DNA of 64,000 nt from Escherichia coli (GCF_044324785.1 NZ_CP172127.1); one strand, 5' to 3'; positions 3,064 through 16,294 are shown, counted from the stretch's first letter. Translations and numbers: made by a program. The notes: generated by a model from the letters alone, not told the origin.

Positions 3064-3726
3064 ATGGCTTATCGCGACCAACCTTTAGGTGAACTGGCGC
3101 TCTCTATTCCTCGCGCTTCGGCTCTGTTTCGTAAATATGATATGGATTACTGCTGCGGCGGTAAGCAGACGCTGGCGCGCGCGGCGGCACGTAAGGAGCT
3201 GGATGTTGACGTCATTGAAGCCGAACTGGCAAAGCTTGCTGAACAACCGATTGAGAAAGACTGGCGTAGCGCCCCGCTGGCTGAAATCATCGACCATATC
3301 ATCGTGCGCTACCACGATCGCCACCGCGAGCAGCTGCCGGAGCTGATCCTGCAAGCGACTAAAGTCGAGCGCGTTCACGCCGACAAACCGAGCGTGCCAA
3401 AAGGGCTGACAAAATACCTGACTATGCTGCATGAAGAGCTTTCCAGCCACATGATGAAAGAAGAGCAGATCCTCTTCCCGATGATCAAACAAGGCATGGG
3501 TAGCCAGGCGATGGGGCCAATCAGCGTAATGGAAAGCGAGCACGATGAAGCGGGCGAACTGCTGGAAGTGATCAAACACACTACCAATAACGTCACACCG
3601 CCGCCAGAAGCCTGCACCACCTGGAAAGCGATGTATAACGGCATTAATGAACTGATTGATGACCTGATGGATCACATCAGTCTGGAAAACAATGTGCTGT
3701 TCCCACGCGCGCTGGCGGGTGAGTGA
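3064..3726 (+). CDS. ytfE: Iron-sulfur cluster repair di-iron protein (RIC)
   Basis: 220-aa ORF with hemerythrin-like His/Glu motifs; matches YtfE. Confidence 0.9.
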
Positions 3727-6329: not shown

Positions 6330-6968
6330 ATGCCCGGGCGCTTTGAACTAAAACCAACCCTGGAGAAAGTCTGGCACGCGCCGGACAATTTTCGCTTCAT
6401 GGACCCGCTGCCGCCGATGCATCGTCGGGGGATCATTATTGCCGCCATTGTATTGGTGGTCGGATTTCTGCTTCCATCTGATGATACGCCCAACGCGCCG
6501 GTGGTGACGCGTGAAGCGCAGTTAGATATTCAGTCGCAATCACAACCGCCGACAGAAGAACAGCTGCGGGCGCAATTAGTCACCCCACAAAATGATCCTG
6601 ATCAGGTGGCTCCGGTCGCTCCAGAACCTATACAGGAAGGCCAGCCAGAAGAGCAGCCGCAAACCACCCAAACGCAACCATTCCAGCCAGATAGCGGAAT
6701 TGATAATCAATGGCGCTCTTACCGTGTCGAACCCGGTAAAACGATGGCGCAGCTGTTCCGCGACCACGGACTGCCCGCTACCGATGTCTATGCAATGGCG
6801 CAGGTAGAAGGCGCGGGTAAGCCGCTGAGTAATTTGCAAAACGGGCAGATGGTGAAAATCCGCCAGAACGCCAGCGGCGTGGTGACGGGCTTAACCATTG
6901 ATACGGGGAATAATCAACAGGTCCTGTTTACCCGCCAGCCGGATGGCAGTTTTATTCGTGCGCGGTAG
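6330..6968 (+). CDS. ytfB: OapA/LysM-domain cell-division-associated protein
   Basis: ORF 6294..6968; 212-aa product from ATG 6330 ([10 protein letters not shown]...); Pro/Gln-rich linker, TM segment. Confidence 0.85.
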
Positions 6969-7623
6969 ATGAAGGATCAACCAAAAGCCAGCTAAGGAGC
7001 GTCTCTTTGATGACCTTACGTCTGGCTTCCAGTGCCTGGGGGGAAACCATACTGATATGATAAACTAGGCCAAGCGTATGCTGGTTGATCAAATAATATC
7101 CCCCAAGCGCAGCAATATTAATATTCACCTGCAATGGGTCGATATCTGGCTTAAAAATATTGTGTTTCTTCCCTTCATCCAATAAGGATTCCATTAACTG
7201 CAAGTGCGCATGGTTAATTTCTAAGAGACGCTGTGATTTTGCATAATGCACACCTTTACTTTGATTTTCACTATGCACAATTTTTAAAAACCAGGGGTTA
7301 GCAATATAATAATCCCATGTAAAATCAATAATTTTCTCAATGGCTTTTTGTGGCGGAAGATCTGAGAAATCAAGGGCCTTTTCTTTTTGTCGAATATCGT
7401 TCCAGGTATATTCCAGTACTTCAATAAATAAATTTTCTTTATTACCAAAGTGATGATAAACCGTCTGTTTACTACACCCCGCAGCCTTAACAATATTATC
7501 GACCCTGGCCCCTTCATAACCATATTCGGCAAATTCATTAACCGCGCATAACAGCAGCTTTTCCTTCAGGCTCTGTACGTTGCTGGTATCAAGATACATA
7601 ACGCTTCCCCACGACCTCTTCAA
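6952..7623 (-). CDS. TetR/AcrR-family transcriptional regulator (full-length; K-12 carries only a remnant, ytfA, as far as I recall)
   Basis: 223-aa ORF with N-terminal TetR helix-turn-helix (...[18 protein letters not shown]...); AT-rich; 3' end overlaps ytfB 3' end by 17 bp; divergent from the downstream operon. Confidence 0.75.
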
Positions 7624-7809
7624 GACAACTATCTTAACCCGATTAATTAGAAGCTCCAGTAAAAAGGATAAAAACTTGTACTTTCATCAAGTTATCAAAT
7701 GTCCTGTGATCACTATCGCATATCAACCAACCAGATGGTTGATCTTTCTTGCGGCACGTCGCAAGCTAATTGTCACTTAGAAACAATATTCAAAAAAGAG
7801 AGCTATTGT

Positions 7810-8601
7810 ATGAAATCCACTCGTCCTGTTGCCGTGATTACCGGAGCCGCTCGTGGTATTGGAAAGGGCTGTGCGCTGGAGCTTGCTCGTGGCGGATTTA
7901 ACCTGCTGATTAACGATCGCCCCGATGATGACAGCGTAGAAAAATTACATGCCACGCAACAGGAATGTCTGGCAGAAGGTGTGGAAGTGATTTGCTTCCC
8001 TGCCGATGTCGGCGATCTCTCCTTGCATGAAGAGATGCTCGACGCGGCACAAAACCAGTGGGGACGTCTGGACTGCCTGCTCAACAACGCAGGCATTTCA
8101 GTGAAAAAACGCGGTGACCTTCTCGACCTCGAACCAGACAGCTTCGACCAAAATATTGCCATTAACACCCGCGCACCGTTCTTCCTCGCTCAGGCATTCA
8201 GTAAGCGCTTACTGGCACAGCCGAAACCGGAAGCAGAACTGCCGCACCGCTCGATTATTTTTGTCAGTTCCATCAACGCCATCATGCTGGCGATGAATCG
8301 CGGCGAATATACCATTGCCAAAACTGCCGTCTCTGCCGCTGCTCGTCTGTTTGCTGCTCGGCTTTGTAATGAACAAATTGGCGTTTATGAAGTGCGTCCT
8401 GGTCTCATCAAAACCGATATGACTATTCCGGCAACGGCCTATTACGACGAACTGATTGCCAAAGGTCTGGTGCCGTGGGGACGTTGGGGTTATCCGGCTG
8501 ATATTGCTTCCACTGTCCGCGCGATGGCGGAAGGTAAACTGATTTACACCTGTGGTCAGGCGGTTGCCATTGACGGCGGCTTAAGTATGCCGCGTTTCTG
8601 A
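7810..8601 (+). CDS. Short-chain dehydrogenase/reductase (SDR)
   Basis: ORF 7699..8601; start at ATG 7810 with upstream aagagag SD; TGAARGIGKG Rossmann motif, NNAG, YxxxK (YTIAK) catalytic motif. Confidence 0.8.
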   Translation: MKSTRPVAVITGAARGIGKGCALELARGGFNLLINDRPDDDSVEKLHATQQECLAEGVEVICFPADVGDLSLHEEMLDAAQNQWGRLDCLLNNAGISVKKRGDLLDLEPDSFDQNIAINTRAPFFLAQAFSKRLLAQPKPEAELPHRSIIFVSSINAIMLAMNRGEYTIAKTAVSAAARLFAARLCNEQIGVYEVRPGLIKTDMTIPATAYYDELIAKGLVPWGRWGYPADIASTVRAMAEGKLIYTCGQAVAIDGGLSMPRF

Positions 8602-8610
8602 GGCTGAATC

Positions 8611-9453
8611 ATGAGAGATCTGTTACAACGCCCGGATTTATTCAGTATCAATACCGCGACACTGGGCTATAAAACGCCGCTTCCCGCCATTATTGATGCC
8701 TGCGCCGCACGCGGTATTGGCGCAATTGCCCCCTGGCGCAGGGAGTTGCAGGGTGAAGATCTCCAGCAAATCGCCCGCCAGCTTGCCGCCAGTAAGATGA
8801 ACGTTTCCGGTTTGTGCCGTAGCACTTACTACACCGCGCCGACACTGGCGGAACGCAAACTGGCGATTGATGATAACCGCCGGGCGCTGGACGACGCAGC
8901 GGTGCTTAACGCCGCCTGTTATATGCAGGTGGTTGGCGGGTTACCGCAGGGAACAAAAGATTTGTACGAAGCGCGGGAACAAGTAAAACAAGGGATTCGC
9001 CAGTTGCTGCCACATTCGAAAGATGTCGGCGTGCCAATTGCGCTGGAGCCGCTGCACCCGATGACTGCTGCCGACCGCTCTTGCCTGTGCACGTTACGTC
9101 AGGCGCTGGACTGGTGTGATGAACTCGATCCCGATGGTGAGTTTGGCCTCGGCGTAGCGGTAGATGTCTACCATGTCTGGTGGGACCCGGATCTCGCCAG
9201 CCAACTCCAGCGCGCCGGAAAACGCATCCTCGCGTTTCATGTTTCCGACTGGTTAGTACCAACCACCGATCTGGTCAATGACCGTGGAATGCCGGGAGAT
9301 GGCGTCATCAATATTCCGTCAATTCGTCGGCTGGTTGAAAACGCCGGATTTAATGGCGCTATTGAACTGGAAATATTCTCGCCGTACTGGTGGCAAAAAG
9401 ATATTAACAGCACGCTGGATATTAGCGTCGATCGCATCGCGCATTATTGCTAA
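8611..9453 (+). CDS. Xylose-isomerase-like TIM-barrel protein (sugar-phosphate isomerase/epimerase family)
   Basis: 280-aa ORF 10 nt downstream of the SDR gene; family assignment by sequence resemblance, not verified. Confidence 0.65.
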   Translation: MRDLLQRPDLFSINTATLGYKTPLPAIIDACAARGIGAIAPWRRELQGEDLQQIARQLAASKMNVSGLCRSTYYTAPTLAERKLAIDDNRRALDDAAVLNAACYMQVVGGLPQGTKDLYEAREQVKQGIRQLLPHSKDVGVPIALEPLHPMTAADRSCLCTLRQALDWCDELDPDGEFGLGVAVDVYHVWWDPDLASQLQRAGKRILAFHVSDWLVPTTDLVNDRGMPGDGVINIPSIRRLVENAGFNGAIELEIFSPYWWQKDINSTLDISVDRIAHYC

Positions 9454-9462
9454 GGAATGATT

Positions 9463-10239
9463 ATGAGTGACCAACCCGTTCTGTTCAGCAGAGCGGCGGC
9501 TTCCTGCCGTCTGACATTGAACCGTGAAGATAAATGTCATGCTATTAATGAAGAGATGATTGAATCTCTCGATCATTATTTAAATGAAATTGAAAACGAC
9601 ACCACATTACGATTAGTCGAATTAACGGCAACCGGCGATAAATTCTTTTGTGCGGGCGGCGATATTAAATCGTGGTCAGCCTATTCGCCATTAGATATGG
9701 GCAGAAAATGGATTAAACGCGGTAATGACGTTTTTAATCGCCTGCGCAACTTACCCCAATTAACCGTTGCAAATCTCAACGGTCATACCATCGGCGGTGG
9801 TATTGAACTTGCTTTGTGCTGCGATATTCGTATTGCCCGTCCCGGCGCGAAATTCTCTAACCCGGAAGTGATGCTCGGCATGGTGCCTGGCTGGATGGGC
9901 ATTGAACGTGTGCTTAATCAGGTCGGTCCGGTGGTCGGTCGCCAGATGCTGATGCTGGGTAAACGCCTGACGGCGCGGGAAGCTCAGGCGGCGAATTTAA
10001 TTGATGAAGTGGTAGAAAAAGAACAGGTGGAAAGCTGGATGGCGAACCAGTTAGCGCAGCTGGAAAAATGTGGTCCGGTGGCGCTCGCACATATCAAGCA
10101 ACTGATTCTGGCACTGGAAAATAAACATGCCGATTACCCGCACCAGCTACTGGCTGGATTAATGTCCGCCACTCAGGATTGCCAGCAGGCGACGCGCGCG
10201 TTTGCCGAAAAAAGTAGCGTGAGCTTCCACAATCAATAA
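9463..10239 (+). CDS. Enoyl-CoA hydratase/isomerase (crotonase) family protein
   Basis: ORF 9457..10239; FFCAGGDIK and GGG/EL crotonase motifs; aagga SD favours ATG 9463. Confidence 0.75.
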   Translation: MSDQPVLFSRAAASCRLTLNREDKCHAINEEMIESLDHYLNEIENDTTLRLVELTATGDKFFCAGGDIKSWSAYSPLDMGRKWIKRGNDVFNRLRNLPQLTVANLNGHTIGGGIELALCCDIRIARPGAKFSNPEVMLGMVPGWMGIERVLNQVGPVVGRQMLMLGKRLTAREAQAANLIDEVVEKEQVESWMANQLAQLEKCGPVALAHIKQLILALENKHADYPHQLLAGLMSATQDCQQATRAFAEKSSVSFHNQ

Positions 10240-10248
10240 GGAAATTGT

Positions 10249-11790
10249 ATGCGTAAGATAACAACCGCCGAGGCACTGGCGGCGCAAATTCAGGACGGCG
10301 CAACCATTGCCATTAGCGGTAACGGCGGCGGCATGGTGGAAGCTGACCATATTATGGCCGCCATTGAAGCGCGTTTCCTGCAAACCGGACACCCTCGCGA
10401 TCTGACATTGATCCACTCGCTGGGTATTGGCGATCGCGACAGCAAAGGCACTAACCGTTTTGCTCACGCCGAAATGCTCAAACGCATTATTGCCGGACAT
10501 TTTACCTGGTCGCCCAAGATGCAGGAACTGGTGAAAAGCAATGCTATTGAAGCCTACTGTTTCCCTGGTGGCGTGATTCAGGCGTTGCTACGGGAGATCG
10601 GTGCCGGACGTCCGGGGCTTTTTACCCACGTTGGGCTGGGATCGTTTGTTGATCCACGCAATGGCGGCGGTAAGTCGAATGAATGCACTACCGACGACCT
10701 GGTAGAACTGATTGAAATCGACGGTGAGACCAAACTTCGTTATCGCCCTTTCAAAGTGGATTACGCGATTTTGCGTGGCACTTATGCCGATCCACGAGGC
10801 AACGTTAGCCTCGAAGAAGAAGCGATTGATATGGATAGCTATTCGATGGCGCTGGCAGCACACAACAGCGGTGGCAAAGTGTTCGTACAGGTACGCGATG
10901 TGCTGGAAGCAGGTGCCATTGAACCACGCCGGGTTAAATTACCGGGGATTCTGGTTGATGGCATCGTTGAACACCGCGAACAGCCACAAACCTATCTTGG
11001 CAGTTACGACCTGACCATCAGCGGCCAACATCGCCGTCTGAGTTCTAACGACGCTATTGAGCTGGTTAGTCATCCGGTGCGTCGCCTGATTGCCCGTCGG
11101 GCAGCGCGGGAACTGGTGGCAGGCGCTTCAACCAACTTTGGCTTTGGTATTCCCGGCGGCATTCCAGGAGTAGCGCTGCGCGAAGGCGTGCCTTACCAAA
11201 GTTTATGGCTGAGCGTCGAGCAAGGCGTGCATAACGGTATGATGCTGGATGATGCGTTTTTCGGCTGCGCCCGCAACGCCGATGCCATTATTCCATCACT
11301 CGATCAATTTGAGTTCTACAGTGGTGGAGGGATCGATATCACCTTCCTCGGCATGGGAGAGATGGATCAGTACGGTAACGTCAACGTATCCCATCTCAAT
11401 GGCAATCTGATTGGCCCCGGCGGATTTCTCGAAATTGCGCAAAATGCCCGTAAAGTGGTGTTCTGCGGCACGTTCGACGCTAAAGGCAGCAAAATCGATA
11501 TAACGCCAGATGGCTTGCATATCGCCCAGTCAGGTCAAATCCCTAAACTGGTTACCCAGGTGGAAAAAATCACTTTTAGCGCCGCCTACGCACAGCAAAG
11601 TGGTCAGGAAGTGTTGTATATCACTGAGCGCGCAGTATTCCAGTTAACGGCAGAAGGCGTTGAATTAATTGAAATCGCGCCGGGTGTAGAGATTGAGCGC
11701 GACATTCTGCCGTTCATGGCTTTCCGTCCAATTATCAAGCACCCACGCCTGATGGAAAGTAGCCTGTTTACGCCGATGGAGGATGCATGA
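10249..11790 (+). CDS. Family-I CoA-transferase (acyl-CoA:acetate/3-ketoacid type, fused subunits)
   Basis: 513-aa ORF; resembles YdiF-like fused alpha/beta CoA-transferases; SD aagga upstream; translationally coupled to flanking genes. Confidence 0.7.
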   Translation: MRKITTAEALAAQIQDGATIAISGNGGGMVEADHIMAAIEARFLQTGHPRDLTLIHSLGIGDRDSKGTNRFAHAEMLKRIIAGHFTWSPKMQELVKSNAIEAYCFPGGVIQALLREIGAGRPGLFTHVGLGSFVDPRNGGGKSNECTTDDLVELIEIDGETKLRYRPFKVDYAILRGTYADPRGNVSLEEEAIDMDSYSMALAAHNSGGKVFVQVRDVLEAGAIEPRRVKLPGILVDGIVEHREQPQTYLGSYDLTISGQHRRLSSNDAIELVSHPVRRLIARRAARELVAGASTNFGFGIPGGIPGVALREGVPYQSLWLSVEQGVHNGMMLDDAFFGCARNADAIIPSLDQFEFYSGGGIDITFLGMGEMDQYGNVNVSHLNGNLIGPGGFLEIAQNARKVVFCGTFDAKGSKIDITPDGLHIAQSGQIPKLVTQVEKITFSAAYAQQSGQEVLYITERAVFQLTAEGVELIEIAPGVEIERDILPFMAFRPIIKHPRLMESSLFTPMEDA

Positions 11791-13859
11791 GTCAGCTTGA
11801 TGACACCATCCTTGATGCGCTGACGCACGTCACTTTCCCAAAGGGGTTTGTGTCAGCAGAGCCAACGTCAATTGTCACCGTTGAGGATGTTGATTACCCG
11901 ATCTGGCAAGTTGATGCGCTGGTCGTTGGTAGCGGCGCAGCAGGATTACGTGCGGCAGTTGAACTTAAACGCCGCCAGCAAAATGTGCTGATCGCCACCG
12001 CCGGGTTATATATGGGGACGTCGGCATGTTCTGGTTCCGATAAACAGACGTTGTTTACCGCCGCTACCGCGGGCAACGGCGACAACTTCGCCAAACTGGC
12101 AGAGGCACTTGCGAGCGGTGGGGCGATGGATCACGACACCGCTTATGTCGAAGCGGTAGGTTCTCTGCACACTCTTGGCGGGTTGCAATATCTTGGTCTG
12201 GAATTACCGGAAGATCGCTATGGCGCGATTCTTCGTTATCAAACCGACCATGACGAAGCCGGGCGTGCAACCTCGTGTGGGCCGCGTACCTCAAGGTTAA
12301 TGGTGAAAGTGCTGCTGGAAGAAGTACAGCGTCTTGCTATCCCAATGTTGACCAGTGCAACAGTGATTAAACTGCTGCATCAGCGTGACGAAAACGGCGA
12401 AGACCGCGTGGCGGGGGCTATCCTCGCGACCGGTCATCGCGCCCATAACCCATGGGGGCTGGCAATTGTGATTGCGCCCAATGTGGTACTGGCAACAGGA
12501 GGGCCTGGCGAGCTTTATCGCGACAGTGTGTACCCACACAAATGTTTCGGCTCGCTGGGTCTGGCGCTGGAGGAAGGTCTGACGCTAACGAATCTGACTG
12601 AAAGCCAGTTTGGTATAGGCACACCGCGCAGCACGTTTCCGTGGAATTTGTCCGGGACTTATGTACAGGTGATCCCATATATCTATTCCGTGGATGCTGA
12701 GGGTAACGAGTATAACTTCCTCGCGGATTACTATCGCACCACCCAGGAGCTGGCTTCAAACATTTTCCGTAAAGGCTATCAGTGGCCGTTCCACGCCACT
12801 CGGGTGATGGATTTTGGCTCCAGCTTGTTAGATATGGCAGTAGCGCAAGAGCAGCAATCAGGGCGTCAGGTATTTATGGATTTCAATCGCAATCCTGAAG
12901 CGGTGCCGGGTGACCTGCCCTTCTCATTAGATCGACTGGACGACGACGTTCGCGCGTATCTGGAAAATAACGACGCTCTGGCACCATCGCCCATCGAACG
13001 GCTGCAACGAATGAATCCGCTGTCTATCTCGCTGTATAAGATGCACGGTTACGATCTCACCACACAGCCATTGCAGTTTGCCATGAATAATCAGCATATG
13101 AATGGCGGCATTGAAGTCGATATCTGGGGACAAACATCTCTACCCGGTTGTTTTGCAGTGGGGGAAGTTGCTGGCACACACGGCGTCACCCGACCTGGCG
13201 GCGCGGCATTGAATGCCGGGCAGGTTTTTGCTGTTCGTCTGGCACGTTTTATTGGTTGCACGCAAAAGCGGAATATTGATGGAGATATAGCACAGCTGGC
13301 AGCTCCGGCACTGGCTTCTATAAGAGAGATCATTACTCAGGCGCACGATAACGGGACCGGGATGCCGTTGTCGGTTGTGAGAGAAAAAATTCAGGCACGA
13401 ATGTCTGACCATGCGGGATTTATTTGTCATGCCGATAAAGTCCGACGCGCCACTCGTGATGCCCTGCTATTGAACGAATTTGTCCAACGGCATGGATTGG
13501 CAATCAAACATGTGGGTGAAGTTTCCGAGCTGTTTATGTGGCGGCATATGGCGCTGACTTCTGCCGCGGTATTAACACAATTAACGCATTATATTGATGC
13601 TGGTGGCGGCAGTCGTGGGGCGCGGATGGTTATTGATCCACAAGGCAAATGCCTACCACAAACTCGTCGCGGCGTAAAAGAAGAATGGCGTTTTCGCTCT
13701 GAACTCGCTGAAGATAAAAATCACAAATTAACAATTCAATATTCGCAAGGTTCTTTTATTACCGAAGTAAAGTCTTTACGTATGCAACCGTGTATTAACG
13801 GTATTTACTTTGAAAAAAACTGGCCAGACTTTTTAAAGGGAGACATTTACACACAATAA
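11787..13859 (+). CDS. FAD-binding oxidoreductase, fumarate reductase/succinate dehydrogenase flavoprotein superfamily
   Basis: 690-aa ORF overlapping the CoA-transferase stop (ATGA); VVGSGAAGLRAA dinucleotide fold at residue ~46 and C-terminal GEVAGTHGVTRPGGAALN motif typical of FrdA/SdhA/NadB. Confidence 0.75.
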   Translation: MSQLDDTILDALTHVTFPKGFVSAEPTSIVTVEDVDYPIWQVDALVVGSGAAGLRAAVELKRRQQNVLIATAGLYMGTSACSGSDKQTLFTAATAGNGDNFAKLAEALASGGAMDHDTAYVEAVGSLHTLGGLQYLGLELPEDRYGAILRYQTDHDEAGRATSCGPRTSRLMVKVLLEEVQRLAIPMLTSATVIKLLHQRDENGEDRVAGAILATGHRAHNPWGLAIVIAPNVVLATGGPGELYRDSVYPHKCFGSLGLALEEGLTLTNLTESQFGIGTPRSTFPWNLSGTYVQVIPYIYSVDAEGNEYNFLADYYRTTQELASNIFRKGYQWPFHATRVMDFGSSLLDMAVAQEQQSGRQVFMDFNRNPEAVPGDLPFSLDRLDDDVRAYLENNDALAPSPIERLQRMNPLSISLYKMHGYDLTTQPLQFAMNNQHMNGGIEVDIWGQTSLPGCFAVGEVAGTHGVTRPGGAALNAGQVFAVRLARFIGCTQKRNIDGDIAQLAAPALASIREIITQAHDNGTGMPLSVVREKIQARMSDHAGFICHADKVRRATRDALLLNEFVQRHGLAIKHVGEVSELFMWRHMALTSAAVLTQLTHYIDAGGGSRGARMVIDPQGKCLPQTRRGVKEEWRFRSELAEDKNHKLTIQYSQGSFITEVKSLRMQPCINGIYFEKNWPDFLKGDIYTQ

Positions 13860-13951
13860 TTTTCAATATTTCCTCTGTACCTGATTTTTATTGCCTATTA
13901 CATGGAAATACCAACAACCAGGGTTTATTAATATAATTAAAAGGTTTAAAA

Positions 13952-15229
13952 ATGAATAAAATAAAGAATTATCGATGGCATATGATTGCCCTCGTATGCT
14001 TTATCACTGTAATCAATTATCTGGACAGAACGGCGTTAGGTATTGCGGCTCCAACGATTATGGAGACAACCGGAATAACTAAAGAGCAATATTCATGGAT
14101 TGTCAGTGCATTCCAGTTGGCCTATACATTAGGGCAACCGGTAATGGGCTTCTTTATTGATACCGTGGGTCTGAAGTTAAGTTTTGCGATATGTGCCGCA
14201 ATTTGGGGCCTGGCGACAATGGGCCATGCACTAACCGGAACGTGGTCTGGTCTGGCATTTATGCGCGCCCTGATGGGTTTCAGCGAAGCGTCGGCAATTC
14301 CGGCGGGTGTAAAAACCGCATCAACATGGTTCCCGGCAAAAGAGCGTGGCGTGGCGACAGGTGTTTTCAATATGGGCACCTCACTCGGCGCGATGCTTGC
14401 TCCACCGTTGATTGCCTGGTGCATTATGTTTCATAGCTGGCAATTTGCGTTTATTGTTTCAGGTAGCCTTGCTTTGCTCGCGGCTTTATTTTGGTTCTTT
14501 TGTTATAAAGATCCGAAAGATGCCAAACGCCTTTCTGATGAAGAGCGCCACTATATTGAATCAGGGCAAGAACAGCATCTTAAAACAGATAAGAAAGAAA
14601 AAACGTCAATCAAGCATATCCTCAGCCAACGTAATTTCTGGGGGATTGGCATCGCGCGTTTTCTCGCAGACCCGGCATGGGGAACCATTAACTTCTGGGT
14701 GCCGATTTTCTTCGTCGAAACGCTGCATTTTAGCCTGAAAGAAATTGCCATGTTCGTCTGGCTGCCTTTCCTGCTGGGCGATCTCGGCTGTTTAGCCAGT
14801 GGTTTTGTCGCGAAGTTCTTCCACGATCGCGGCGTGAGTTTAATTAACTCACGAAGAATTACCTTCACTATTGCAGCCGTCATTATGATGACGATTGGCC
14901 TGGTGAGTATTGTCGAAAATCCCTACATTGCCGTATTACTGATTAGTATTGGCGCGTTCTCGCATCAATGTCTTTCTACTGTAGCAGCAACTCTGGGTGG
15001 CGATCTGTTCAAAAAAGACGAAGTAGCTACCGCAGTGGGTATGGCAGGAGCCTGTGCGTGGAGCGGTCAGTTGATTTTCAACCTGTTCATCGGGGCATTC
15101 GTTCACATTATCGGCTTCGCGCCGTTCTTTATTGCCCTGGCTTTCTTTGACATTATTGGTGCTATTGCGTTGTGGACGCTTATCAAAGTTAAAGATGAAG
15201 AACCGCAAGTACAGCTAGCTACCCATTAA
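13952..15229 (+). CDS. MFS transporter
   Basis: 425-aa ORF with ~12 predicted hydrophobic helices; AT-rich codon usage. Confidence 0.75.
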   Translation: MNKIKNYRWHMIALVCFITVINYLDRTALGIAAPTIMETTGITKEQYSWIVSAFQLAYTLGQPVMGFFIDTVGLKLSFAICAAIWGLATMGHALTGTWSGLAFMRALMGFSEASAIPAGVKTASTWFPAKERGVATGVFNMGTSLGAMLAPPLIAWCIMFHSWQFAFIVSGSLALLAALFWFFCYKDPKDAKRLSDEERHYIESGQEQHLKTDKKEKTSIKHILSQRNFWGIGIARFLADPAWGTINFWVPIFFVETLHFSLKEIAMFVWLPFLLGDLGCLASGFVAKFFHDRGVSLINSRRITFTIAAVIMMTIGLVSIVENPYIAVLLISIGAFSHQCLSTVAATLGGDLFKKDEVATAVGMAGACAWSGQLIFNLFIGAFVHIIGFAPFFIALAFFDIIGAIALWTLIKVKDEEPQVQLATH

Positions 15230-15240
15230 TTATTTTAAAT

Positions 15241-15273
15241 AAAAACGCTATAATTGAGGTTATGGCGTTTTTA
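15241..15273 (+). terminator. Predicted rho-independent terminator after the MFS gene
   Basis: Hairpin acgctataa...ttatggcgt followed by a T-run. Confidence 0.5.
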
Positions 15274-15499
15274 AAGAAGCTTGAGTTATCGAACCTCGCT
15301 TACCAACGCGTTGTCAATCATATCCCCCCTCCCTGCTGCATCGTTATATCCACAATGAGCGATTTTTGATATTAATATCTTTCACCATCCGCTATTTTCA
15401 CTACTTCAGAAAACAAACTTATTTTTATTAATATCGATTCTTTATTCTGTAAACATTCAGCTGAGATATTTATAAAAACATTAAACAGGCAACGATACA

Positions 15500-16294
15500 A
15501 TGACATTACCAACCACTATTTATTCATTTCCTGCATATTCACCCCGTTTTTCGTCCACCGACAAACCAGTAAAATTAAAATTTCATCAATACGCACGCGC
15601 TACATTACTTTCAAATCGTGGAAGAGATCATAATTGCGATGGCAGACATACTGTTGAGATCCACAAACTAGATCTCTCAGACTGGCAAGCATTCAATAAA
15701 CTAGCGATGGCGTGTAATGCTTACGATGGAATAACAATGAATGGTGATAATTCTTTTGGATGGAACCATGAAGCTACATTAGATAATATTCACGCCCAGA
15801 AATACAATAAAGCTTACGCGGGTGCGAGGTTAACCGCAGAACTGAAATATTTATTGCAAGATGTCGAATCCTTCGAACCCAACAGTAAATACACAATACA
15901 CGAGGTTGTTTTGGGTCCAGGTTATGGTACTCCAGACTATACCGGCCAAACGATAGGATACGTTGTAACCCTTCCTGCCCAAATGCCTAATTGCTGGTCA
16001 TCTGAACTACCAACAATCGATCTTTATATCGACCAACTTCGCACTGTTACAGGCGTTTCTAATGCCCTCGGATTCATCATTGCTGCATTGCTAAACGCGT
16101 ATTCTGATTTACCCCATGATTTGAAAATTGGTCTGCGTTCCTTATCAAGTTCAGCAGCAATCTACTCGGGTTTGGGTTTCGAGCGAGTGCCGCAGGGCCG
16201 AGACATAAGGTGCGATCATATGCATCTAACGCCAGCAAACCATCCTGAATTATGGACACAAGAGAATGGTGAATGGATCTACTTGCGAAACTAA
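15500..16294 (+). CDS. yjfZ: DUF2686-family protein of unknown function
   Basis: 264-aa ORF; length and position next to rplI match K-12 yjfZ; AT-rich upstream region. Confidence 0.7.
   Translation: MTLPTTIYSFPAYSPRFSSTDKPVKLKFHQYARATLLSNRGRDHNCDGRHTVEIHKLDLSDWQAFNKLAMACNAYDGITMNGDNSFGWNHEATLDNIHAQKYNKAYAGARLTAELKYLLQDVESFEPNSKYTIHEVVLGPGYGTPDYTGQTIGYVVTLPAQMPNCWSSELPTIDLYIDQLRTVTGVSNALGFIIAALLNAYSDLPHDLKIGLRSLSSSAAIYSGLGFERVPQGRDIRCDHMHLTPANHPELWTQENGEWIYLRN

Follow-up and report, generated by a model that had tools for sequence, protein, structure and literature searches.

What does an E. coli operon do whose enzymes correspond to no pathway that can be named, and does it work through CoA thioesters? 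The question is raised by six closely spaced ORFs on the + strand at positions 7810-15229 of a 64,000-nucleotide stretch of Escherichia coli DNA (the whole stretch analysed, hereafter the window), which lie where the original prediction had placed a CoA-dependent catabolic pathway. The gaps between the five enzyme genes are 9, 9 and 9 nt followed by a 4-nt overlap, with 92 nt before the transporter gene, and based on this spacing and overlap the genes are arranged as an operon. HMM and structure searches upheld all six of the predicted families. Of the broader outline, the sugar-acid guess and the absence of beta-oxidation stood, whereas the CoA-centred chemistry and a flavoprotein acting on an enoyl thioester did not. 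As had been noted, neither thiolase nor ETF is present among the ORFs and RefSeq features of the island, nor is an acyl-CoA dehydrogenase, and the lack of thiolase and acyl-CoA dehydrogenase rules out classical beta-oxidation. Our preferred explanation, with a probability of about 0.5, is an accessory operon under TetR repression that breaks down an anionic sugar acid; a hexuronate, or something closely similar to one, is the most likely substrate.

The five enzyme genes and the transporter gene form an intact, repressor-controlled operon. Every enzyme is shown to keep the hallmark residues of its own family, and the CoA-transferase Glu, both crotonase Glu and the SDR YxxxK are all present. 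When the genes are compared with those of CFT073, strain L65 and E. albertii, the great majority of differences are at third codon positions (11/1/73 in the CoA-transferase), and no internal stops occur in the genes that aligned gap-free in these comparisons, a set that leaves out the flavoprotein gene and, in two of the three comparisons, the TetR gene. On sequence evidence, the five-enzyme block is under purifying selection.

The regulator gene, found among the ORFs at 6952-7599 on the - strand, is divergent from the operon and encodes a TetR/AcrR-family repressor. K-12 has nothing at the island site but the pseudogene ytfA, of which this gene is the intact counterpart. RefSeq names its orthologue a TetR/AcrR regulator, and the protein matches TetR equivalogs weakly. 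The intergenic region shared with the SDR gene contains a perfect palindrome (strand not applicable), ATCAACCA-N6-TGGTTGAT, at 7722-7743, the sole inverted repeat detected in a search of 7600-7830. An identical palindrome is present in other E. coli islands, Pseudescherichia and Phytobacter have sites of the ATCAAC...GTTGAT type between the corresponding genes, and Mangrovibacter and Brenneria have more loosely related ones there; the TetR proteins of these other genera are only 40-44% identical. We infer that the palindrome is a candidate TetR operator, with a motif conserved across genera.

No characterised orthologous pathway was found among RefSeq names, PDB and AFDB neighbours or the literature, in agreement with the earlier remark that the enzyme set fits no nameable E. 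coli pathway. The RefSeq product names of the island genes are generic. The only literature mention of them is a 2010 paper that lists c5298-c5303 of CFT073 as uncharacterised (PMC2831201).

The first gene (7810-8601, +) encodes an SDR that scores 421 bits against NCBIfam PRK12745 (cut-off 250) and has TGAARGIGKG (TGxxxGIG) and YTIAK (YxxxK) in its translation. FabG, its RefSeq name, was rejected based on scores of 126.9 against TIGR01830 (cut-off 297.75) and 114 against PRK05653.1-3 (cut-off 296); the gene context is a catabolic operon rather than a fatty-acid synthesis cluster. An Asp can be read from the sequence after strand beta-2, and the enzyme is probably NAD-dependent. Its closest PDB entries, 4one and 4da9, are both of unknown function. 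The second gene (8611-9453, +) encodes a xylose-isomerase-like TIM barrel, a fold of the keto-sugar isomerase/epimerase type, which matches Pfam AP_endonuc_2 (1.7e-37, residues 28-265) and whose model (pLDDT 87.6) aligns to 3ju2 with a TM of 0.88. It resembles S. meliloti SMc04130 (3ju2/3qc0; 49-50% identity) and 7vpf (40%), all relatives of unknown function, and its further structural neighbours are IolI, ketose 3-epimerases, YcjR and UlaE. IolO, hydroxypyruvate isomerase, FrlC and OtnI were rejected as identities, with 31, 27.5, 26 and 23.5 bits where 300-353 are required, and the scores against all other functional equivalogs were likewise far under the cut-offs.

A ketone-making dehydrogenase with a TIM-barrel enzyme acting beside it is a combination that the island shares with the levoglucosan (LgdA/LgdB), YcjS/YcjR and inositol (IolG/IolE/IolI) systems, and the Gfo/Idh/MocA genes of related loci match levoglucosan dehydrogenase and IolG models, under their cut-offs. 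However, the TIM barrel of the island is 14-20% identical to the characterised members, and those keto-sugar pathways have no FrdA-fold flavoprotein.

The island exists in E. coli in two versions, one with a DgoT-like MFS transporter and one with a TRAP transporter; in 1481 E. coli genomes TRAP DctQMP genes take the place of the MFS gene at the same site. The window carries the MFS version. Its transporter (13952-15229, +) is related to the organic-anion (D-galactonate transporter) subfamily, scoring 315 bits against TIGR00893 (subfamily cut-off 395), and among PDB structures it matches the D-galactonate transporter DgoT best (2e-40), then sialin and VGLUT. Judged by these matches, it is the probable importer of the substrate. 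The binding protein of the TRAP version (locus L006) has 4ovr, 4x8r, 4n8y, 4n15 and 4n91 as its top PDB matches (1e-63 to 1e-71). The ligand is glucuronate for 4X8R, 4N91 and 4MHF, and galacturonate for 4N8Y (PMC11668362; PMC7660916). In STM3169 the uronate is held by Arg150, Arg170 and Asn210 (PMC7660916), and the TRAP binding protein has Arg146, Arg166 and Asn206 at the same 20- and 40-residue spacing, in GARSFY, VRVQ and AEN blocks common to 4ovr, 4x8r, 4n8y and 4n15. Asn31 and Gln32 are also kept, overall identity to the solved binders is about 40-50% (by eye), and a Gln at position 70 replaces the Glu of the binders. With two Arg and the Asn in place, the protein is a predicted hexuronate binder. 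Since it is closest to glucuronate and galacturonate binders and keeps the ligand triad, a sugar acid of the hexuronate kind is the probable substrate; this TRAP evidence comes from the other version of the island and not from the window. Both the DgoT-like MFS and the hexuronate-type binding protein agree with the earlier guess that the substrate is a carboxylate with a sugar-acid-like skeleton. E. coli already uses glucuronate and galacturonate via ExuT/UxaC/UxuAB, and a plain hexuronate may therefore not be the true substrate.

The linked MFS proteins of Brenneria and other enterobacterial genera look more like aromatic-acid/H+ symporters (369 bits against the PcaK model in Brenneria, cut-off 770; best matches to such symporters in the other genera), which favours a different and rather unlikely reading, in which the operon acts on a ring acid of the hydroaromatic or alicyclic type (quinate, shikimate, dihydroshikimate or a hydroxylated cyclohexanecarboxylate). 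The flavoprotein would then add or remove a double bond beside the ring carboxylate, the SDR and TIM barrel would oxidise and dehydrate ring hydroxyls, and the CoA-transferase and crotonase would act on a ring acyl-CoA. Shikimate, for example, is an alpha,beta-unsaturated carboxylate, to which an FrdA-type site is suited, and the xylose-isomerase-like fold includes 3-dehydroshikimate dehydratases, with 5hmq among the structural neighbours of the TIM barrel. YdiF, the closest characterised relative of the CoA-transferase, is encoded beside ydiB/aroD in K-12, and in a Desulfobacterales locus the neighbouring SDR is best matched by 2,3-dihydro-2,3-dihydroxybenzoate dehydrogenase, with acyl-CoA dehydrogenases there too. 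Against a hydroaromatic substrate, the TRAP binding protein belongs with the hexuronate binders and shares the residues that hold their ligand, members of the flavoprotein family recur beside sugar ABC transporters, Gfo/GMC dehydrogenases, KdgK-like kinases and Eda, and the TIM barrel has no significant match to any dehydroshikimate dehydratase model. Moreover, we know of no protocatechuate pathway in E. coli that would receive the product.

The flavoprotein (11787-13859, +; 690 residues) combines the FrdA/SdhA/NadB fold with a different active site. It matches Pfam FAD_binding_2 (1.5e-27), and the Foldseek neighbours of its AlphaFold model (pLDDT 90) are FrdA, SdhA, NadB and AprA, with probability 1.0, TM 0.63-0.68 and 14-18% identity against SdhA/FrdA. 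The genuine frdABCD genes of this genome lie elsewhere in the window, and we compared active sites by profile-profile alignment to the window's own FrdA, in which single positions are approximate given the low identity. The covalent-FAD His (H44) aligns with Gly77, H232 with an invariant Gly276, T244/E245 with Gln294/Val295, and R287 with no conserved Arg. The H355 position falls on Gln436, with His437 next to it, and R390 is kept as R469, the only one retained among the dicarboxylate-site residues H232, T244/E245, R287, H355 and R390. What the protein has in common with FrdA, SdhA and NadB is the multi-domain fold, GxGxxG, the R390-equivalent Arg and the nearby His, but all of its NCBIfam equivalog scores are far under the cut-offs. 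No genes for iron-sulfur or membrane-anchor subunits occur among the ORFs and RefSeq features of the island. The label "FrdA-like" thus describes the fold correctly but not the mechanism, as most of the FrdA catalytic residues are missing.

The flavoprotein family comprises 420 representative clusters below 1e-30, with no named member among the clusters or AFDB neighbours. Across phyla it adjoins sugar dehydrogenases and KDG-kinase/KDPG-aldolase-like genes. An SDR or Gfo dehydrogenase lies within 8 kb in 48 of 80 family loci, a KdgK-like kinase is found in 23 and an Eda-like aldolase in 10, and sugar ABC transporters and Gfo/GMC sugar dehydrogenases are repeated neighbours. In Flavimaricola the order is Gfo-flavoprotein-kinase-Eda, with Eda over its cut-off, and a Bacillota locus consists of a TRAP system and the flavoprotein, nothing more. 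Because that locus, and many loci with KDG kinase-like and aldolase genes, have no CoA genes, the substrate of the flavoprotein is probably a free acid rather than the enoyl thioester that had been suggested.

The related loci also separate a core from an add-on. Brenneria has TetR-SDR (75% identical)-TIM (70%)-flavoprotein (59%)-MFS, with CoA genes absent. Pseudescherichia, Phytobacter, Mangrovibacter and Escherichia sp. ESNIH1 have SDR-Gfo/Idh/MocA-TIM-MFS-flavoprotein, a Gfo/Idh/MocA dehydrogenase standing in for the CoA-transferase/crotonase pair in these four genera. The conserved core across genera is therefore SDR, TIM barrel and flavoprotein, the CoA pair is an add-on, and the view of the operon as a CoA-dependent pathway is not sustained. 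The add-on recurs elsewhere. Devosia, Rhodobacter and Rubellimicrobium have a CoA-transferase and a crotonase at most 8 kb from the flavoprotein gene, in a betaproteobacterial locus the two lie on one contig with it, about 8 kb upstream, and the Desulfobacterales locus has a CoA-transferase and a weaker crotonase match. Outside Escherichia, the CoA-transferases share just 39-41% identity with the island enzyme and may not be its orthologues.

In the island, the pair consists of a crotonase-fold enoyl-CoA hydratase/dehydratase (9463-10239, +, in an ORF that opens at 9457) and a single-chain family-I CoA-transferase of the YdiF type (10249-11790, +). The crotonase matches enoyl-CoA hydratase models at 1e-30 to 1e-44, all under the equivalog cut-offs, and has 3-hydroxypropionyl-CoA dehydratase 5zai as its top PDB match (2.5e-40). 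Its translation contains two Glu 20 residues apart (GGGIE...NPE), the motif of the two catalytic Glu in the rat enzyme. The CoA-transferase matches E. coli YdiF (PDB 2ahu) over its full length (5e-115, residues 6-508), both being single-chain fusions of alpha and beta subunits, and E324 (...LSVEQG...) aligns with E333 of YdiF (...LTVETG...), the glutamate that forms the CoA thioester. YdiF is a family-I acyl-CoA:acetate CoA-transferase, a paralogue rather than an orthologue of the island enzyme, and its gene context is different; ydiF sits with ydiO and ydiQRST, whereas the island has no acyl-CoA dehydrogenase or ETF. By analogy, the pair may be likened to CaiB/CaiD of the E. coli carnitine pathway, also a CoA-transferase and a crotonase-fold hydratase without a thiolase, in which CoA is cycled while the acid is hydrated or dehydrated. 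However, CaiB is a family-III transferase, the island enzyme belongs to family I, and the island has no carnitine-type genes.

If the pathway were centred on this pair, it would process, as a CoA ester, some short acid with a hydroxy group or a double bond (3-hydroxypropionate, acrylate or lactate) that the other enzymes make from a larger precursor. The best solved relative of the crotonase fits such an acid, as does the YdiF type of the CoA-transferase, which also includes propionate CoA-transferase, and the betaproteobacterial locus has the same gene types together with an acyl-CoA dehydrogenase and EtfAB, best matched by the acryloyl-CoA reductase subunits AcrC (360 bits), AcrB and AcrA. 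We nevertheless regard a short acid as improbable. The crotonase and Acr scores are all far under equivalog cut-offs, the pair is missing from most loci with the SDR-TIM-flavoprotein core, and a hexuronate-type binding protein and a DgoT-like MFS are ill-suited to a C3 acid.

The flavoproteins of anaerobes and PVC bacteria are fused to an OYE-type flavin reductase or encoded beside one (family member P0150 is fused to an OYE-type flavin domain), and some of these loci have OYE/GltD-type genes. The association hints at a reductive role in those organisms; the E. coli island has no such partner. That the flavoprotein is a terminal reductase (as are the fumarate and urocanate reductases), with an unsaturated acid as electron sink and not carbon source, is doubtful, since the fumarate reductase fold and the OYE-type fusion and neighbours, an arrangement that serves soluble NADH-dependent enoate reductases, are set against an E. 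coli island with no OYE, cytochrome or iron-sulfur partner, a flavoprotein missing the FrdA proton-donor Arg and the Thr/Glu pair, and kinase/aldolase neighbours in other phyla that point to carbon catabolism.

For an operon that degrades an anionic sugar acid, we propose the following steps, in which the order and the exact substrate are a proposal only. The acid would be imported, the SDR would oxidise a ring hydroxyl to a ketone, and the TIM-barrel enzyme would isomerise or epimerise beside that ketone. The flavoprotein may hold the free carboxylate via the retained Arg469 and His437 and carry out a two-electron reaction beside it, giving a 2-keto-3-deoxy-type acid. Kinase and aldolase genes are absent from the island itself, and the core enzymes KdgK and Eda would finish the pathway. 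The CoA-transferase and crotonase, in the manner of CaiB/CaiD, might thioesterify one acid intermediate and add or remove water across its alpha-beta bond, after which the CoA would be passed on. We know of no production of a keto-deoxy sugar acid by a flavin reaction of an FrdA-type fold. More tentatively, the operon could be an undescribed route for a host- or diet-derived uronic acid beyond the UxaC pathway (e.g. L-iduronate, a modified glucuronate or a keto-uronate), built on a new FrdA-fold family acting on free sugar acids, with a CoA-cycling hydratase pair helping in Escherichia. If so, the flavoprotein family would fill a gap among the enzymes of sugar-acid catabolism, and would be used by organisms as different as E. 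coli, gut Firmicutes, marine Rhodobacteraceae and Planctomycetes.

The known routes from hexuronates to KDG (UxaC/UxuAB and KduI/KduD, then KdgK/Eda) have the same probable substrate class, and in other phyla KdgK-like and Eda genes accompany members of the flavoprotein family. The island, however, has no homologue of UxaC, UxuA/B, KduI, the kinase or the aldolase, and the similarity of KduD to its SDR is distant (116 bits, cut-off 339). To our knowledge, the established uronate routes have neither a flavoprotein nor CoA steps. One sugar acid, 2-deoxyribonate, has been described as degraded via CoA thioesters in the enterobacterium Klebsiella michiganensis, where the accessory cluster responsible also contains MFS transporters (Price et al. 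2019, PMC6365646). That cluster encodes a CoA synthetase, beta-hydroxyacyl-CoA dehydrogenase, thiolase, CoA-transferase, lactonase and glycerate kinase and, unlike the island, no TIM barrel, crotonase or FrdA-fold flavoprotein (PMC6365646).

New here are the two transporter versions, the SDR/TIM/flavoprotein core with its CoA add-on, the active-site losses of the flavoprotein and the sugar-gene neighbourhoods of its family. One characterised member would annotate many loci in many phyla, and would probably uncover a kind of reaction that is new to the fumarate-reductase fold. The operon is present in more than half of sequenced E. coli and absent from the laboratory strains used to map metabolism, and its substrate is a blind spot for that reason; once found, it would be an extra carbon source for models of gut and urinary-tract colonisation. 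Counting the 6-kb enzyme block at >=80% coverage, 3114 of 5426 complete E. coli genomes (about 57%) carry it, the uropathogen CFT073 among them, which goes well beyond chance. The carriers also include E. albertii, some Salmonella and the Klebsiella oxytoca group.

The island lies in Escherichia DNA between ytfB and yjfZ/rplI. On the plus strand it contains open reading frames for a short-chain dehydrogenase/reductase (SDR, 7810-8601), a xylose-isomerase-like TIM barrel (8611-9453), a crotonase (9463-10239), a CoA-transferase (10249-11790), a flavoprotein (11787-13859) and an MFS transporter (13952-15229), and a TetR gene on the minus strand (6952-7599) is divergent from the operon. The enzyme genes are separated by 9-nt gaps, apart from one pair that overlaps by 4 nt. 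One perfect palindrome, ATCAACCA-N6-TGGTTGAT (7722-7743), lies in the intergenic region that TetR and the SDR share; it is a candidate operator. Pseudescherichia and Phytobacter have ATCAAC...GTTGAT palindromes between their TetR and SDR genes, and Mangrovibacter and Brenneria have looser related sites there. Given that the TetR proteins of these other genera are only 40-44% identical, the retention of the sites supports the operator reading. Promoter and terminator scans found sites no more numerous than in shuffled sequence. The overlap between the CoA-transferase and flavoprotein genes (11787-11790) is such that a single-base change would fuse the two, and the predicted proteins P0006 and P0029, from E. 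coli assemblies, join them in 1078 and 1043 residues; these may be genuine fusions or products of sequencing error.

The operon is real and maintained. The enzyme block (the five enzyme genes, 6 kb) is found at ≥80% coverage in 3114 of 5426 complete E. coli genomes and is single copy and chromosomal in every carrier. Compared with CFT073, strain L65 and E. albertii, substitutions fall mainly at third codon positions (for example, counted by codon position, 11/1/73 in the CoA-transferase gene and 5/2/42 in that of the TIM barrel), and the proteins are 95-99% identical. No internal stops occur in the genes that aligned without gaps, a set that leaves out the flavoprotein gene and, in two of three comparisons, the TetR gene, both of which aligned with gaps. 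K-12 has the ytfA pseudogene alone, a remnant of the island TetR gene (3195-3596 of the K-12 locus, L090), and O157:H7 Sakai has IS609 between yjfZ and ytfB in place of the island (L086 11842-13589). CFT073 carries the complete island under the old locus tags c5298-c5303.

Several features of individual copies were also recorded. In CFT073 the place taken by yjfZ in the window, between the MFS gene and rplI, is occupied by two genes (L089 1028-2791), one for a helix-turn-helix protein and one, frameshifted, for a HipA-family toxin. The DNA identity of the window enzyme block (7810-13859) to other copies reaches a maximum of 97.1% among the 5426 genomes, with most copies at 95-96%, and the nearest flavoprotein cluster has 96% protein identity. 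The window may come from an unusual lineage or carry an old allele.

The six protein families named in the original prediction were all upheld by HMM and structure searches. The SDR passed the NCBIfam model PRK12745 (421 bits, cut-off 250) and failed every FabG model, so '3-ketoacyl-ACP reductase', as RefSeq names it, should not be read as its function. The TIM barrel matches Pfam AP_endonuc_2 (1.7e-37), and its structural neighbors include IolI, YcjR and ketose 3-epimerases. None of the PDB relatives of the TIM barrel and SDR (3ju2/3qc0, 7vpf, 4one, 4da9) has a known function. A role for the TIM barrel as 3-dehydroshikimate dehydratase was dropped, as no model of that enzyme scored. The crotonase matches many hydratase models, reaching the equivalog cut-off of none, and its sequence shows the two catalytic glutamates at a spacing of 20 residues. 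For the CoA-transferase the match is to E. coli YdiF (5e-115), and its E324 aligns with YdiF E333, the glutamate that forms the CoA thioester. The flavoprotein has a Pfam FAD_binding_2 domain. The MFS protein scores 315 bits on the D-galactonate-transporter subfamily model, under the cut-off of 395; among solved structures DgoT is closest to it, with sialin and VGLUT next.

The E. coli island comes in two versions. One, carried by 1692 genomes and seen in the window, closes with the MFS gene, after which comes yjfZ (13620-15229 in the window for the stretch concerned). In 1481 genomes the five enzyme genes occupy the same chromosomal site and are followed by the TRAP transporter genes DctQ, DctM and DctP, with yjfZ absent (12103-14946 of L006 and 10001-12845 of L091). 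The breakpoint between the versions is within the final 240 nt of the flavoprotein gene, and their TetR genes are only 82% identical. The G+C content is a mosaic: the five enzyme genes have 51-55%, the MFS gene 44-47%, TetR about 41% and yjfZ 40%; this pattern (window 7000-8000 and 13000-16000) fits separate histories of the regulator and transporter cassettes. That one enzyme set is served by two unrelated organic-anion importers argues that the substrate is a carboxylate.

The best clue to which carboxylate comes from the sister version, through its TRAP binding protein. The top solved relatives (1e-63 to 1e-71) are 4ovr, 4x8r, 4n8y, 4n15/4ln5 and 4n91, then 4mij/4mhf. Among these, 4X8R was solved with glucuronate and 4N8Y with galacturonate (PMC11668362), 4N91 (Apre_1383) with glucuronate, and 4MHF (Bpro_3107) with both (PMC7660916). 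The glucuronate-specific Salmonella protein STM3169, modelled on template 4N15, has the conserved ligand residues R150, R170 and N210, and glucuronate-specific proteins additionally have N35 and Q36 (PMC7660916). R146, R166 and N206 of the island protein repeat the STM3169 spacing and lie in blocks common to the solved proteins; N31 and Q32 are kept too, but at position 70 Gln stands where Glu is usual. From these relatives and residues, the substrate is probably a hexuronate or a similarly shaped acid.

To compare gene neighborhoods we used 80 loci encoding flavoprotein relatives in species-representative genomes, a scan that replaced metagenome contigs of distant relatives, which were too short. 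The Brenneria locus has the order TetR-SDR-TIM-flavoprotein-MFS (75% identity to the island for the SDR, 70% for the TIM barrel and 59% for the flavoprotein) and lacks the CoA-transferase and crotonase. In Pseudescherichia, Phytobacter, Mangrovibacter and Escherichia sp. ESNIH1 the order is TetR-SDR-Gfo/Idh/MocA-TIM-MFS-flavoprotein, and the SDR, Gfo/Idh/MocA, TIM barrel and flavoprotein set also occurs in Lentisphaeria, Opitutia, Coraliomargarita and a betaproteobacterium. Thus, the conserved core consists of the SDR, the TIM barrel and the flavoprotein. The MFS genes of Brenneria and the other enterobacterial genera above are of the aromatic-acid type, which favors a hydroaromatic substrate such as shikimate or quinate; we regard this as unlikely, the binding-protein residues of the TRAP version pointing to hexuronates.

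In Escherichia the CoA-transferase/crotonase pair was inserted between the TIM barrel and flavoprotein genes of this core. Devosia, Rhodobacter and Rubellimicrobium also encode a YdiF-type transferase and a crotonase at most 8 kb from the flavoprotein gene. A betaproteobacterial contig that carries the flavoprotein gene has the pair ~8 kb upstream of it, accompanied by a TRAP system, an acyl-CoA dehydrogenase and EtfAB, and a Desulfobacterales genome has the transferase plus a weaker crotonase match. With an identity of only 39-41%, the non-Escherichia transferases may not be orthologues of the island enzyme. By an informal estimate, the recurrence of the pair near the flavoprotein exceeds expectation for so uncommon a gene type. 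A CoA pathway for a short hydroxy acid or acrylate would account for the pair, and we consider it improbable for an operon whose conserved core is made up of the other three enzymes.

The AlphaFold model of the flavoprotein, built on 25 family members, has a pLDDT of 90, and Foldseek groups it with SdhA, FrdA, NadB and APS reductase (TM 0.63-0.68, 14-18% identity). A fumarate reductase, frdA with frdB, is encoded near the window end (59950-62485), and this true FrdA (59950-61758) was aligned to the family profile as a comparator. The covalent-FAD histidine H44 of FrdA is replaced by glycine in the flavoprotein family, H232 by an invariant glycine, and T244/E245 by Gln/Val in the flavoprotein, whereas the proton donor R287 has no conserved counterpart in the family. 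In contrast, R390 is retained as R469, and H437 is one position off FrdA H355. Thus, the fold is FrdA-like, with chemistry that is not of the fumarate, succinate or aspartate type. A KstD-like ketone desaturase, at odds with the grouping with FrdA, SdhA, NadB and AprA in the fold search, survives only as a mechanistic possibility.

The wider flavoprotein family points to sugar-acid catabolism. It comprises 420 representative clusters at <1e-30, with members in Enterocloster bolteae, Succinatimonas hippei, Treponema and an Asgard archaeon, and every database name found for a member was generic. Within 8 kb of the flavoprotein gene, an SDR or Gfo/Idh/MocA dehydrogenase is encoded at 48 of the 80 loci, a KdgK-like PfkB kinase at 23, a GMC oxidoreductase at 23 and an Eda-like aldolase at 10. 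At alphaproteobacterial loci the flavoprotein is accompanied by a carbohydrate ABC transporter, LacI, two GMC oxidoreductases, a Gfo enzyme (levoglucosan-dehydrogenase-like at 310 bits, under cut-off) and a KdgK-like kinase, and at some of them also by an aldehyde dehydrogenase and a true Eda (215 bits, cut-off 156). Planctomycete and Phycisphaerae loci have an SDR, an Eda-like gene, a BNR_4 protein, the flavoprotein and a kinase. A Bacillota locus consists of a two-component regulator, a TRAP system and the flavoprotein, which suggests the free acid, once imported, as the substrate of the flavoprotein. The relatives closest to the TIM barrel (~50% identity) come from rhizobial clusters that also encode Gfo dehydrogenases, a mandelate-racemase-type dehydratase and a DHDPS-like enzyme. 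Its closest solved relative, SMc04130 (PDB 3ju2/3qc0) of Sinorhizobium meliloti, belongs to an uncharacterized cluster (L087 2948-11157) that also encodes a sugar ABC transporter, TetR, three Gfo/Idh/MocA oxidoreductases, a DHDPS-family protein and a mandelate-racemase-type enzyme.

Some flavoprotein relatives, such as P0150, are fused to an OYE-type (Oxidored_FMN) domain, and OYE or OYE/GltD-type genes adjoin relatives in anaerobes and PVC bacteria (L059 1193-2608, L071 4087-6741). This suggests that in these organisms the enzyme may run reductively, driven by NAD(P)H. The E. coli island has no OYE partner, and a role for its flavoprotein as an electron-sink reductase seems doubtful to us.

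Overall, we read the island as a TetR-repressed operon for a hexuronate-like acid, with a probability of roughly one half; any single step is much less certain. The regulation and import steps are based on gene arrangement and family membership, and the chemical steps are inferred. TetR would repress the operon until the acid or a product binds, and the acid would be imported by the MFS or TRAP system. The SDR may then form a ring ketone, beside which the TIM barrel could isomerize or epimerize, as its neighbors IolI, YcjR and ketose 3-epimerases do. The flavoprotein would catalyze a two-electron step beside a carboxylate gripped by R469 and H437, possibly yielding a keto-deoxy acid to be completed by the core enzymes KdgK and Eda. 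The transferase and crotonase might thioesterify one acid intermediate and then add or remove water across its alpha-beta bond. CaiB and CaiD carry out such thioesterification and hydration or dehydration for carnitine.

The enzyme families of all parts are familiar, and so are repressor-controlled sugar-acid operons in general; what is unfamiliar is this combination of enzymes and the family of the flavoprotein. Consistent with the original prediction that the set corresponds to no nameable E. coli pathway, a search of open-access papers and preprints found neither a characterized orthologue of any of the six proteins nor a paper assigning a substrate. The acyl-CoA deoxyribonate pathway of Klebsiella michiganensis, suspected at first, was rejected as its gene set differs (PMC6365646). 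A 2010 comparative genomics study tabled c5298-c5303 as an uncharacterized '3-ketoacid metabolism' set, which all four UPEC genomes in its comparison and several further Escherichia genomes carry (PMC2831201). The same study lists a second six-gene '3-ketoacid metabolism' set in CFT073, c5020-c5025, found in just one other genome compared (PMC2831201), which may be a related accessory cluster.
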